Below are positions 1-3,633 of a DNA stretch of 3,633 nucleotides, in pieces. The position numbers and the translations under genes are program-made. Within the stretch, counting starts at the first letter, position 1. Each line of letters starts with the position of its first letter. The notes under the pieces were generated by a model. It made no database searches and was not told the DNA's origin. It was given only the letters and a program-made list of their open reading frames with translations. The stretch lies in the NCBI GenBank assembly GCA_000004985.1, contig GG739217.1; one strand, written 5' to 3'. The DNA is from Naegleria gruberi (lineage: Eukaryota).

Positions 1-400
1 ATGATATTAATAACATATCAGCTGGAAATGAACAATCTTCCTCAACCTTAACAATATCACCTACTTTTAAATCACATGTATATACTTGTTCAATCATATT
101 AATACCATTATTATTACTATTATTATTATTATTATTCATGGAATTATTTCCTCCTCTTCTTAATACATTTGTGGTCATCATGTTAATTTTACGATCATTT
201 AAATATCTGAGAAAATCTTCACCTCCCTCTCTTATCATATTCACTCCGATAATGAAAATTACAGGGAGAACTGCAGTGATGGGTGTGATGGGTGAAACAC
301 CTGGTATTAAGGCAAATATCATTGTAATGATAAAGTAAATATTACCAATTTTACATAATTGATATATTAAATTAAGAATTATAAAATTCCACCATGTATA
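1..400 (-). CDS. P4-type phospholipid-transporting ATPase (flippase), internal exon, partial; it continues beyond position 1. It encodes 'YTWWNFIILNLIYQLCKIGNIYFIITMIFALIPGVSPITPITAVLPVIFIIGVNMIREGGEDFLRYLNDRKINMMTTNVLRRGGNNSMNNNNNNSNNNGINMIEQVYTCDLKVGDIVKVEEDCSFPADMLLIS'.
   Basis: I reverse-complemented and translated by hand. The frame is open for 133 codons. Motifs of the Drs2/ATP8/ATP9 family are in the expected order and spacing: 'KY…F' before TM1, 'N-x-YF…IPGVSP' (TM1 and luminal loop), 'M-I-R/K-E-x-x-E-D…R…D…N' (TM2 exit), then 'VLR', 'VGDIV.V' and 'PADMLLIS'. The last matches the canonical 'PADLLLLSSSE', which is cut by the window edge. The other two minus frames and the plus frames are interrupted. 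Confidence 0.85.
107..136. repeat. (ATT)10 trinucleotide microsatellite with one ACT interruption. On the minus strand it is (AAT)n encoding the Asn homopolymer 'NNNNNNSNNN' inside the P4-ATPase CDS.
   Basis: Ten consecutive ATT units (one ACT) read on the plus strand and translated on the minus strand. The run sits between 'VLRRGG' and 'INMIEQVY…VGDIVKV', a position where P4-ATPases normally have only a short beta-hairpin. Confidence 0.85.
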
Positions 401-460
401 CTATTAGTTTACAACAATATTAAGATATAAATTATTTCAATGAGATTAATAATAACATAC
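401..460 (-). other. Spliceosomal intron of 60 nt, phase 0. Minus-strand sequence is GTATGTTATTATTAATCTCATTGAAATAATTTATATCTTAATATTGTTGTAAACTAATAG.
   Basis: On the minus strand the exon ends '…ACT ACA AAG' (…TTK) and is followed directly by GTATGT. At the other end, TAATAG is followed by 'TAT ACA TGG' (YTW…). Removing the 60 nt joins '…NYISTTK' to 'YTWWNF…', recreating the conserved P4-ATPase 'I-S-T-T-K-Y-x-x-x-x-F' motif, whereas read-through gives 'KVCYY*'. The intron is about 83% A+T. Confidence 0.7.
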
Positions 461-948
461 CTTTGTAGTAGAAATGTAATTGGATGAAAAGCGTTTTCTT
501 CTCAAACCTAAAAACCACTTTTTAGTAGCCTTTGAATTTAATTCCCAATTATTAATATGTACAATATGTGATTCACCTTCATCTTCCTCTTCTATGGTAT
601 TATTATTATCATGTTGTTCCGATAATTTAAATGAATTATTACAATTTGATCCTGGTAATGATGAGGTTGCTGATGTTGGCATATTACTATTAGGTGATTG
701 TAATATTATTATATTATTATTCTTATCATCTTGATGAGGTTGACCAGCTGATGATGGTGATTTAAGAATATTACTTGATTGATGAGGAGATTGTTGTTGA
801 TAATAATAAGGATGATCATCTAAATGTAAGGGATCCAACAAACCAACTGAACTTCTATTTGAAAAGGAATCTAATAATTCCCTATCTGATGATGAACCAC
901 CACTTGGAGTTGATACTCTATCTTTATGATAGTGTAAATCTATTGTTG
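461..948 (-). CDS. P4-type ATPase, upstream exon, partial; it continues 5' into the N-run. It encodes a Ser/Asn/Gln-rich low-complexity N-terminal tail, then '…SHIVHINNWELNSKATKKWFLGLRRKRFSSNYISTTK'.
   Basis: A 163-codon open frame abuts the N-run, in phase with the downstream exon across the 60-nt intron. 'HIVHINN' corresponds to the P4-ATPase 'R-x-I-x-x-N' start motif (Drs2 'PRIIHIND'). '…NYISTTK' corresponds to '…NHISTTKYN'. Codon usage (AGA, GGT, TTA, CAA, AAT) matches the downstream exon. The only in-frame Met visible is in '…SPNSNMPTSA…', and the true start may lie inside the N-run. Confidence 0.75.
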
Positions 949-2603
949 NNNNNNNNNNNNNNNNNNNNNNNNNNNNNNNNNNNNNNNNNNNNNNNNNNNN
1001 NNNNNNNNNNNNNNNNNNNNNNNNNNNNNNNNNNNNNNNNNNNNNNNNNNNNNNNNNNNNNNNNNNNNNNNNNNNNNNNNNNNNNNNNNNNNNNNNNNNN
1101 NNNNNNNNNNNNNNNNNNNNNNNNNNNNNNNNNNNNNNNNNNNNNNNNNNNNNNNNNNNNNNNNNNNNNNNNNNNNNNNNNNNNNNNNNNNNNNNNNNNN
1201 NNNNNNNNNNNNNNNNNNNNNNNNNNNNNNNNNNNNNNNNNNNNNNNNNNNNNNNNNNNNNNNNNNNNNNNNNNNNNNNNNNNNNNNNNNNNNNNNNNNN
1301 NNNNNNNNNNNNNNNNNNNNNNNNNNNNNNNNNNNNNNNNNNNNNNNNNNNNNNNNNNNNNNNNNNNNNNNNNNNNNNNNNNNNNNNNNNNNNNNNNNNN
1401 NNNNNNNNNNNNNNNNNNNNNNNNNNNNNNNNNNNNNNNNNNNNNNNNNNNNNNNNNNNNNNNNNNNNNNNNNNNNNNNNNNNNNNNNNNNNNNNNNNNN
1501 NNNNNNNNNNNNNNNNNNNNNNNNNNNNNNNNNNNNNNNNNNNNNNNNNNNNNNNNNNNNNNNNNNNNNNNNNNNNNNNNNNNNNNNNNNNNNNNNNNNN
1601 NNNNNNNNNNNNNNNNNNNNNNNNNNNNNNNNNNNNNNNNNNNNNNNNNNNNNNNNNNNNNNNNNNNNNNNNNNNNNNNNNNNNNNNNNNNNNNNNNNNN
1701 NNNNNNNNNNNNNNNNNNNNNNNNNNNNNNNNNNNNNNNNNNNNNNNNNNNNNNNNNNNNNNNNNNNNNNNNNNNNNNNNNNNNNNNNNNNNNNNNNNNN
1801 NNNNNNNNNNNNNNNNNNNNNNNNNNNNNNNNNNNNNNNNNNNNNNNNNNNNNNNNNNNNNNNNNNNNNNNNNNNNNNNNNNNNNNNNNNNNNNNNNNNN
1901 NNNNNNNNNNNNNNNNNNNNNNNNNNNNNNNNNNNNNNNNNNNNNNNNNNNNNNNNNNNNNNNNNNNNNNNNNNNNNNNNNNNNNNNNNNNNNNNNNNNN
2001 NNNNNNNNNNNNNNNNNNNNNNNNNNNNNNNNNNNNNNNNNNNNNNNNNNNNNNNNNNNNNNNNNNNNNNNNNNNNNNNNNNNNNNNNNNNNNNNNNNNN
2101 NNNNNNNNNNNNNNNNNNNNNNNNNNNNNNNNNNNNNNNNNNNNNNNNNNNNNNNNNNNNNNNNNNNNNNNNNNNNNNNNNNNNNNNNNNNNNNNNNNNN
2201 NNNNNNNNNNNNNNNNNNNNNNNNNNNNNNNNNNNNNNNNNNNNNNNNNNNNNNNNNNNNNNNNNNNNNNNNNNNNNNNNNNNNNNNNNNNNNNNNNNNN
2301 NNNNNNNNNNNNNNNNNNNNNNNNNNNNNNNNNNNNNNNNNNNNNNNNNNNNNNNNNNNNNNNNNNNNNNNNNNNNNNNNNNNNNNNNNNNNNNNNNNNN
2401 NNNNNNNNNNNNNNNNNNNNNNNNNNNNNNNNNNNNNNNNNNNNNNNNNNNNNNNNNNNNNNNNNNNNNNNNNNNNNNNNNNNNNNNNNNNNNNNNNNNN
2501 NNNNNNNNNNNNNNNNNNNNNNNNNNNNNNNNNNNNNNNNNNNNNNNNNNNNNNNNNNNNNNNNNNNNNNNNNNNNNNNNNNNNNNNNNNNNNNNNNNNN
2601 NNN
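949..2603. other. Unresolved or masked sequence: 1,655 consecutive N.
   Basis: Read directly from the sequence. Open frames on both flanks run into it, so it hides the 5' end of the P4-ATPase gene and the 3' continuation of the cyclase-like exon. Confidence 1.
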
Positions 2604-2705
2604 GATAAGATTGCATGACACATTTTCCTTTCAATCACACCAGCAATGACTGGTCCAGTATTCACACCAATTCTAATGTTCACAATGAGTTGATCATTCG
2701 AATTC
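2604..2705 (-). CDS. Coding fragment with a class-III nucleotidyl (adenylyl/guanylyl) cyclase catalytic-domain signature: '(RNSNDQ)[28 protein letters not shown]…', continuing 3' into the N-run.
   Basis: The hand translation matches the ORF track once GTG-as-M is corrected to V. '[14 protein letters not shown]' matches the cyclase-homology-domain consensus 'R-[IV]-G-[IV]-[HN]-x-G-P-V-[IV]-A-G-V-[IV]-G' in 11 of 14 positions against the mammalian AC C2 '[25 protein letters not shown]'. 'ERKMCHAIL' aligns loosely with '[10 protein letters not shown]'. The frame is open from the TGA at 2708..2710 into the gap. AG at 2706..2707 is a possible acceptor, but the upstream exon boundary is undetermined. 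Confidence 0.4.
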
Positions 2706-2795
2706 CTTCATATAAATCAATAGTTTATCATTCAAAGGATGAGACATTTCATAGAGTTTGTGATACCATAAATATATCTGTTGGATCCAAAACTG

Positions 2796-3479
2796 TTACA
2801 TTTTGGAAAATAAATTTTGTTGAGCATTGTAAAAGTTTCTTGTATTTTCTTGAGTTGAAGAAGTTAAGTAATCGGTCATTACTTCTTCAATACCAAAACA
2901 ATATTGAACTTTTGCATTGAATGTAATTGTAATGTTGAGCTGTTGCAAGTATAATAGAACAGATTCATATCTTAATAAGGAGTAAATTTGTTCAAATTCA
3001 CTAGGTTTAAGCTTTTCATTCCAATATCTGGTATCTCCGTATTGGGCTAAACCTGACAAACCAAAAAAGGTAAGAATTTCACCCAAATAAAAAGCTGAAA
3101 ATTGTAAATGACCAATCACATTTGAAAATAATCCAACATTTGTGAAAGTGAATAGGGCTGACTTGGCATTCTTATAAGTTTCATAATATAACATTCCACT
3201 ACATAATGGAATGATTAACGCAAGAATTCCAATAGCAATTACAAGTGTAACATTTGATTGAAGTGCCTTTGATACAATATTTGAATCTAGGGAAGCTTCC
3301 AATGTTGTTTTCTTATTCAATTGTTGATAAATTTTACCAATACAATCCTTGGAAATTTCCTTTTCAAATAATTTGACAATTCTTCTAAAATATAACAAAT
3401 CATATTGAATGTAGGCAATCAATGTACATATAAGCACCATTACACCGATTACAAGGTAAAAGAACCAACTCCGACTCAA
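2796..3479 (-). CDS. ORF of 228 codons for a polytopic membrane-protein segment. Hydrophobic spans are 'SWFFYLVIGVMVLICTLIAYIQY', 'VTLVIAIGILALIIPLCSGMLYY' and 'ALFTFTNVGLFSNVIGHLQFSAFYLGEILTFFGLSGL'. The family is not recognisable with confidence and the 5' end is unresolved.
   Basis: Only one of the three minus frames is open across about 700 nt; the other two carry dense stops, as I checked by hand for 2800..3110. Codon usage matches the P4-ATPase exons. The ORF-track 'M' at 3479 is TTG, not ATG. The first ATG is codon 13 ('…GVMVLICT…'), inside the first hydrophobic span. The ORF ends at TAA 2796..2798. It is probably part of the same gene as the cyclase-motif exon, because that exon needs upstream exons on this strand. 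Confidence 0.5.
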   Translation of the reverse strand: MSRSWFFYLVIGVMVLICTLIAYIQYDLLYFRRIVKLFEKEISKDCIGKIYQQLNKKTTLEASLDSNIVSKALQSNVTLVIAIGILALIIPLCSGMLYYETYKNAKSALFTFTNVGLFSNVIGHLQFSAFYLGEILTFFGLSGLAQYGDTRYWNEKLKPSEFEQIYSLLRYESVLLYLQQLNITITFNAKVQYCFGIEEVMTDYLTSSTQENTRNFYNAQQNLFSKM

Positions 3480-3633
3480 ACATCAAATTAAAAGTTGATG
3501 CCTTACTTCTGTCAACATAGGTATTACAAAAATCCTCATAAATCTGAGTGATTGGAAATTTGTTAAGCCACAAATAATGAAATTTGAAATAGGATACATA
3601 AATTGAGAACTCATCATTTTTTCAATAATTTCC

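Follow-up and report, generated by a model that had tools for sequence, protein, structure and literature searches.

Proteins that combine a P4-ATPase-like part with class III cyclase domains have been described as P4-ATPase-guanylate cyclases (P4GC). In these the flippase module is N-terminal and is followed by two cyclase domains, and they have been reported from every alveolate lineage and from certain stramenopiles (PMC13466520, where Linder et al., 1999 is cited for P4GC). Nowhere in the text of this survey do Naegleria, Heterolobosea, Discoba or excavates appear. For Naegleria, at least 81 cyclases have been reported (PMC9928731). The present work concerns a 3633-bp stretch of Naegleria gruberi DNA (GG739217.1; the whole of it is called the window below), on which an earlier note, made from the letters alone, had seen a cyclase catalytic signature and the N-terminus of a P4-ATPase on one strand, separated by a run of N and arranged in the opposite order to the alveolate fusion. 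Naegleria is a heterolobosean and not an alveolate. Our analysis points to two separate and unrelated genes in the same orientation, a defective copy of a cyclase gene followed by the start of a flippase gene, with no fusion between them, and we hold this to be very probable.

The likeness to P4GC, as known from Paramecium, Tetrahymena, Plasmodium (GCalpha/beta) and Toxoplasma (GC), consists in the occurrence of P4-ATPase-like and class III cyclase-like sequence on one strand. The differences are more extensive. The order on the scaffold is reversed, with cyclase preceding flippase, the host is a heterolobosean, and the two parts lie in separate genes with no demonstrable continuous frame. Furthermore, the Naegleria family to which the cyclase sequence belongs has a single PAS-linked Guanylate_cyc domain and not two domains that each follow six transmembrane (TM) helices. 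Host lineage, module order, the number and context of the cyclase domains and continuity of frame were tested as defining features of P4GC, and the scaffold shows none of them. Decoding of the ciliate type, in which TAA and TAG specify Gln, was considered and rejected. None of approximately 23 in-frame Gln codons is TAA or TAG, which argues against a ciliate of the Tetrahymena or Paramecium type, and the open reading frames (ORFs) close properly under the standard code. An origin from a dictyostelid, Plasmodium or an anaerobic fungus, to which the AT-richness, the poly-Asn and the GTATGT intron might have pointed, gave way to an exact match with an N. gruberi gene model. With a Naegleria scaffold, standard Gln codons and one PAS-linked cyclase domain, the alveolate fusion was a false lead as a frame of reference.

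The stretch is an entire unplaced small scaffold of the N. gruberi NEG-M Sanger draft and consists of two contigs of approximately 1 kb around a sized gap (948 bases, 1655 N and 1030 bases), with a G+C content of 28% and 30% in the two flanks. The genome was sequenced by the Sanger method and comprises 1,977 scaffolds with 35% G+C (PMC9928731). The N-run (949..2603), whose extent of 1655 N had been read correctly, is a scaffold gap of estimated size that the original public entry already contains. Meaningful coding is confined to the minus strand, ORFs on the other strand being short or crossing the N-run, and the claim that a membrane ORF, a cyclase motif and a flippase N-terminus share one strand is correct.

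In the left flank (948..1, minus strand) the presence of a P4-ATPase N-terminus is borne out. An exon at 461..948 (minus) encodes a Ser/Asn/Gln-rich N-terminal tail and then the conserved INNWELNSKATKKWFLGLRRKRFSSNYISTTK. It is followed by a spliceosomal intron of 60 nucleotides (GTATGT...AACTAATAG; 460..401, minus) and by an exon (1..400, minus) encoding the first two TM helices (TM1 and TM2) and the start of the actuator domain (A-domain; ..VGDIVKVEEDCSFPADMLLIS), after which the coding sequence exits the scaffold at its left end. The spliced peptide (..HIVHINNWELNSKATKKWFLGLRRKRFSSNYISTTK|YTWWNF...VGDIVKVEEDCSFPADMLLIS) matches Pfam PhoLip_ATPase_N at E=1.1e-21 over profile positions 1-66 of 67, with a weak match to E1-E2_ATPase besides. 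Its best relatives among solved structures are ATP11C, ATP8B1, Dnf and Drs2, and it aligns with residues 31-156 of human ATP11C. Judged by these matches the flank carries the 5′ portion of a gene for a canonical lipid flippase of the P4-ATPase type. It has the same N-terminal cytosolic segment, TM1-TM2 hairpin and A-domain start as the canonical P4-ATPases (ATP11C, ATP8B1, Drs2p, Dnf1/2) and differs from them in its long Ser/Asn/Gln-rich tail, in an unusual segment, W..NSK.TKK.FLG..KRF, before N.I.TTKY and in a 19-residue insert in the A-domain, the comparison covering the approximately 190 conserved residues of the scaffold flippase that are visible.

The most informative relative of this gene is an ortholog-like flippase at locus L001, which is 58% identical to the scaffold flippase, is interrupted by an intron at the same place (after TTK) and shares with it the run VNMIREGGED..RYLNDR. 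The L001 gene (9475..13155) continues through DKTGT, GDGAND and PhoLip_ATPase_C to its stop codon without a cyclase, and there is an in-frame stop upstream of its N-terminal exon. In the scaffold flippase the DKTGT phosphorylation site, the nucleotide-binding domain and PhoLip_ATPase_C would fall past position 1. The two flippases also have the segment IN(N/D)W..NSK.TKK.FLG..KRF in common. The basic portion of this segment, from the Trp onwards, immediately precedes the conserved N.I.TTKY, and none of the other recovered flippase fragments (P0001-P0005) has it. The 19-residue Asn-rich insert, GGNNSMNNNNNNSNNNGIN, is encoded at 154..98 (minus), between TM2 and the conserved A-domain strand VGDIVKV, and is absent from L001 and from the solved flippases. 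Word-based protein searches with the flippase piece returned short metagenomic fragments only, and a metagenome scan with the flippase alignment returned only distant relatives of 29-57% identity. The frame of the tail is free of stops for approximately 125 codons up to the edge of the gap and the sole Met to be seen in this frame is at 682..680; the actual start codon probably lies inside the gap. Its place could have been fixed if the Ser-rich tail were homologous to the N-terminal exon of L001, but such homology was examined and rejected as not significant, since 318 of 2000 shuffles reach the score.

The right flank (3633..2604, minus) has its relatives in another family. Its membrane ORF is 69% identical to P0007, the protein encoded on the metagenomic contig L003, and the window aligns with L003 at 74% DNA identity (blastn). 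A second, more distant homolog, on the 68-kb contig L004, is matched in its exon 2 at E=1e-54 with a further match at E=7e-17 (tblastn). Both of these metagenomic/Logan homologs (L003 and L004 6538..11909) have the architecture TPR_TmcB, TM region, PAS and single cyclase. In L004 the cyclase gene is intact and consecutive ORFs encode TPR_TmcB, the membrane region, PAS_9 and one Guanylate_cyc domain (153.7 bits). The membrane region of the scaffold is 34-42% identical to that of paralogs from N. gruberi, N. lovaniensis and N. fowleri, which are 1317-1711 residues long, and the membrane exon of L004, which is 48% identical to P0007 as against 36-40% to the N. gruberi paralogs, groups with the scaffold copy. 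No intact N. gruberi protein of more than 50% identity to the scaffold copy was recovered in the homolog searches. TPR_TmcB repeats are present in L003, in L004 and in the paralogs P0016, P0017 and P0019. The domain scan gave no cyclase match in the paralogs P0017 and P0018; in the four scanned paralogs with a cyclase domain the domain order is the same and this domain ends 25-55 residues before the C-terminus.

The proteins of this family consist, in order, of TPR repeats of the TmcB type, a multi-pass membrane region whose loops are large, one further TM helix, PAS and, C-terminally, a single class III cyclase domain. The motifs of the cyclase are FFSDM and KTIGD, with the metal-binding Asp residues, the Lys of KIKTIGD and the Asp of YDLWG as the specificity pair, and NTASR with the transition-state Asn-Arg pair. 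A single class III cyclase domain would have to homodimerise for activity. From the Lys/Asp pair and general knowledge of class III enzymes the family cyclase is predicted to be homodimeric and of the adenylate type. A TPR_TmcB repeat N-terminal to a multi-pass membrane region is likewise found in the tiny macrocysts proteins TmcB and TmcC of Dictyostelium (Pfam TPR_TmcB), a likeness that is drawn from the homologs of the scaffold's gene, as this part of the gene lies outside the scaffold. Among the Naegleria proteins, EFC43412.1 of N. gruberi (P0016, annotated ‘adenylate/guanylate cyclase’), EFC42310.1 (P0058), EFC42124.1 (P0011) and the N. lovaniensis/N. fowleri proteins P0019 and P0053 share with the scaffold copy the membrane region, the cyclase-strand signature and the order of segments. 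Compared with these TmcB-TM-PAS-cyclase proteins the scaffold copy is cut by the scaffold end and contains four frameshifts; its juxtamembrane TM helix, PAS domain, first cyclase half and, it would appear, catalytic loop are missing. The homology of the membrane region and the family form of the cyclase motif identify both pieces as parts of one gene of this Naegleria family, and not of an alveolate-type guanylate cyclase.

Read from the right end of the scaffold, the copy begins with an extracellular or loop segment, EIIEKMMSSQFMYPISNF (3579..3632, minus), which aligns to P0007/L003 and to exon 2 of L004. The coding sequence exits the scaffold at this end and the TPR_TmcB N-terminal part is expected beyond 3633. 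There follows a segment in a shifted frame, YLWLNKFPITQIYEDFCNTYVDRSKASTFNLMFESE (3469..3576, minus), which was delimited by DNA alignment with the intact homolog L003 and is bounded by a 1-nucleotide deletion near 3577 and a 1-nucleotide insertion near 3468. The main membrane-region ORF (2805..3467, minus) encodes three to four TM helices and lies within a membrane-type ORF of 227 residues at 3479..2796 (minus) in the ORF listing. A second shifted-frame segment, NVTVLDPTDIFM (2767..2802, minus), is bounded in the alignment with L003 by a 1-nucleotide deletion near 2803 and a 2-nucleotide deletion near 2766, and the segment YHKLYEMSHPLNDKLLIYMKEF (2700..2765, minus) is the last part that is collinear with L003 and L004. 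The ORF reported in the earlier note at 3479..2796 therefore exists, but it is not a clean gene, as the right flank needs four frame changes and is without large conserved segments.

The damage is seen against seven homologs. The four frame changes relative to L003 (-1 near 3577, +1 near 3468, -1 near 2803 and -2 near 2766) form two compensating pairs, and the peptides inside each pair are still conserved. Approximately 40 residues (W.ELIYGDV.K..D.PV.G.YP..D.LL...NC) that are kept in all seven of the homologs compared have been lost in frame at 2961|2960. This loss sits in the otherwise clean middle part of the right contig and could be a real, species-specific deletion. Around the ELIYGDV segment L003 and L004 do not have their introns at the same positions.

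Homology to L003 and L004, at both the DNA and the protein level, ends at 2700 after ..LLIYMKEF (blastn alignment end at 2701; tblastn). Downstream of this point the homologs carry a TM helix, a linker, PAS and the first half of the cyclase, approximately 400 residues that are absent here in every frame. No PAS domain was found between the membrane region and the cyclase, tblastn giving no high-scoring segment pair to residues 78-346 of P0008 across the scaffold. The segment ending in MKEF directly adjoins a class III cyclase fragment (2633..2690, minus), which reads in another frame and represents the beta4-beta5 hairpin without a catalytic residue. The peptide encoded at 2680..2633 matches Pfam Guanylate_cyc (PF00211) with 24.7 bits (E=1.9e-5, profile positions 97-121 of 183), which reaches the gathering score, and the fragment matches a hidden Markov model (HMM) built from ten cyclase domains of the family with 23.1 bits (E=3e-9). 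It is 61% identical to LLNIRVGINTGRAVAGVI of L004 (tblastn) and bears the family-specific signature NIR(I/V)G(I/V)NTG..(I/V)AGVI.

Only the beta4-beta5 part of a class III catalytic domain was matched and the complete domain is absent. The family motifs FSDM, KTIGD and YDLWGDTINTASR were not found in any frame of the scaffold by tblastn or with the family HMM, and alignment with the L004 sequence places the metal-binding Asp pair, the Lys/Asp specificity pair and the Asn-Arg pair all within the missing parts. Since no catalytic residue survives, ‘catalytic signature’ was a misnomer for this hairpin. Nor is 2705..2604 the cyclase exon it had been taken for, as it has no splice sites or usable GT..AG pairs and adjoins the preceding coding segment (MKEF, 2700) in another frame. 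The possibility that it follows a short intron was rejected on the grounds that the homologs show approximately 400 residues to be missing and no sequence to be added. In the last 30 nucleotides before the gap (2605..2634, minus) the third frame reads LKGKCVMQSY, which resembles the terminal strand of the family, VEVKGKGKMQSY. Eight of 13 positions are identical to L004 and the position is collinear, but the match is not significant (tblastn E=0.89; family HMM -4.4 bits). The invariant KKFAYDLWGDTINTASRMES (context IG.KKFAYDLWGDTINTASRMES...) is absent after ..AGVI. If the match of LKGKCVMQSY is real, a deletion of approximately 50 further residues, including KKFAYDLWGDTINTASRMES, is suggested. 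The catalytic loop is probably missing from the copy as well, and as written the copy cannot make an active enzyme.

Taken as two genes, the scaffold would hold in its right flank (3633..2604, minus) the 3′ portion of a membrane sensor cyclase of a type expanded in Naegleria, and in its left flank (948..1, minus) the 5′ part of a flippase, with the start codon of the latter and the intergenic spacer within the gap. The gap would be expected to contain a short C-terminal tail of the cyclase and its stop, if these are present at all, followed by the spacer, the flippase ATG and the first part of the low-complexity tail. The relationship between the genes is at most ordinary gene adjacency. The loci L001 and L004 come from the same sample. 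In L001 the flippase has a Schlafen/BTB gene on the opposite strand upstream and unrelated genes downstream, and in L004 the next gene after the cyclase encodes an acyl-CoA oxidase and not a flippase; the two genes are therefore unlinked in that organism and neither has the domains of the other. Of the readings offered by the earlier note, that of two tandem genes is supported, and its further option of tandem paralogues of the alveolate guanylate cyclase type is wrong. Several points weigh against two genes. The gap covers the 3′ end of the first gene, the spacer and the start of the second, so that neither stop nor ATG is directly demonstrable, and the flippase frame is open right to the gap edge. 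Moreover, the relative to which L001 and L004 belong is a more distant one (identities of 52-58% and 42-50%), and the absence of linkage there consequently proves nothing for N. gruberi.

Within the reading of two genes it may be asked what the damage to the cyclase copy represents. In amino-acid changes unique to the window as against those unique to L003 the counts are 26 and 20, 16 and 19, and 20 and 14 with L004, P0011 and P0058 respectively as outgroup. Nucleotide differences from L003 are distributed over codon positions 1, 2 and 3 as 72, 43 and 123. The bias to the third position persists in the two shifted-frame segments (6/6/16 at 3469..3576 and 1/1/3 in the other), and there are no in-frame stops in approximately 290 aligned codons. 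The substitutions still show purifying selection, with two tests arguing against long-term decay. Divergence biased to the third position, without an excess of amino-acid changes, implies damage that is either non-biological or very recent, and on these sequence data an artefact of sequencing or cloning is slightly favoured over very recent inactivation. The artefact would have arisen through errors near the ends of a single-pass Sanger read together with a rearranged clone or contig end, and, to judge only from the contig sizes, the scaffold may be the mate pair of a single clone.

The alternative, that the right flank is a genuine and recently inactivated pseudogene of the cyclase family next to a functional flippase, is a serious contender to which we give somewhat less than an even chance. 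It would have arisen within a large family of paralogs by a single deletion event or a few of them. Compared with its homologs the copy lacks three collinear segments and changes frame four times. The loss at 2961|2960 is in frame and falls in the contig's clean middle part, and in so large a family, of at least 81 cyclases (PMC9928731), redundant copies are to be expected. Set against this are the lack of an excess of amino-acid substitutions, the approximately 290 codons without an in-frame stop and the third-position bias that extends even to the shifted segments; seven insertion or deletion events with essentially no neutral substitutions alongside them would be unusual for natural decay. 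The suggestion of a decayed cyclase relic beside an intact flippase, also made in the earlier note, describes the state of the sequence well, but the relic is not like a guanylate cyclase in the alveolate sense and its decay may be artefactual. Should the damage be real, it would provide one small example of turnover in the large cyclase repertoire of Naegleria.

It is also conceivable, though unlikely, that the adjacency is itself an artefact and that the two fragments, joined by one or very few clone mate-pairs or by a clone that is chimeric or rearranged, do not lie side by side in the N. gruberi genome. The flanks, at 948 and 1030 nucleotides, are each about as long as one Sanger read and surround a sized gap. 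In the right flank the frameshifts cluster near both ends, collinearity is lost abruptly in the last 97 nucleotides and there is no evolutionary sign of decay. The scaffold is unplaced in an assembly of 1,977 Sanger scaffolds (PMC9928731) and the linkage is absent in the relative. The left flank, however, is clean throughout, which speaks against generally poor read quality, and base-calling errors cannot yield an internal deletion of 1 kb, so that a separate rearrangement of the clone must be assumed.

A true single gene, with a TmcB-type membrane and cyclase module upstream of a P4-ATPase, is implied by a public gene model for this scaffold. This model, EFC35461.1/XP_002668205.1 (P0013; ‘predicted protein, partial [Naegleria gruberi]’), was retrieved when the membrane ORF's closest homolog was used in an exhaustive HMMER search. 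All 451 of its residues map exactly onto the scaffold, at 3359..2802, one split codon, 916..461 and 400..65, and it joins the membrane ORF to the flippase by means of a 1.9-kb GT..AG ‘intron’ (2799..917) that crosses the N-run and leaves out the cyclase motif. The model ends at 65, where GTAGGT is used as a splice donor, and the conserved VGDIVKVEEDCSFPADMLLIS runs on in frame through 64..1. Because the flippase sequence continues in this way to the end of the scaffold, the 3′ end of the model is also wrong. Exact look-ups of P0013, P0058 and two start-codon variants of the scaffold ORF gave no recorded entry and, like the metagenome scan with the flippase alignment, yielded no sequence to close the gap. 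EFC35461.1 is almost certainly a chimeric automated gene model built across an assembly gap.

Such a fusion could appeal to the common strand and orientation of the two parts, to the flippase frame that stays open for approximately 125 codons to the gap edge with no visible Met before 682, and to the existence of a GT..AG pair for the annotated intron. The upstream module, on the other hand, is frameshifted and has lost PAS and all of the catalytic residues, the annotated intron of 1.9 kb spans the N-run and omits the cyclase motif, and alveolates and some stramenopiles are the only groups for which chimeras of P4-ATPase and cyclase are reported, with the modules in reverse order (PMC13466520). 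In addition, the intact family members all end just after the cyclase domain (25-55 residues beyond it), the related flippase of L001 stands alone behind its in-frame stop, and the L004 cyclase of the same organism has acyl-CoA oxidase as its next gene. The reversed cyclase-to-ATPase fusion, one of the readings in the earlier note, is not supported by this evidence. We regard a single gene as most improbable, and it retains what little weight it has because the junction is hidden in the gap. It is just as improbable that a TmcB-type sensor module, with or without a remnant cyclase, is transcribed in N. gruberi and spliced onto a P4-ATPase as EFC35461.1 implies. If this were true, it would constitute a heterolobosean sensor-flippase chimera that is independent of the alveolate P4GC and reversed in order.

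Tandem paralogues of an alveolate-type P4-ATPase-guanylate cyclase, with the cyclase half of one followed by the flippase module of the next, would fit the order of domains on the strand, but the organism is Naegleria, the family has one PAS-linked cyclase and a TmcB N-terminus and not two cyclase domains behind two sets of six TM helices, and the related flippase of L001 has no cyclase, and we consider this explanation refuted for all practical purposes.

Two separate genes, the reading preferred here, carry little biological weight of their own, as both are from families already annotated in Naegleria. The case does have a bearing on the use of draft assemblies. Short conserved motifs beside N-runs on tiny draft scaffolds are a poor basis for claims about domain architecture, and EFC35461.1/XP_002668205.1 is unfit as evidence for a fusion of membrane sensor and flippase in surveys of this kind. 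Beyond the two genes, scans of the scaffold for tRNAs and with Rfam found nothing. The tandem repeats of the scaffold are short AT-rich arrays only, and the longest of them, near 97..136, is a stretch that codes for poly-Asn.

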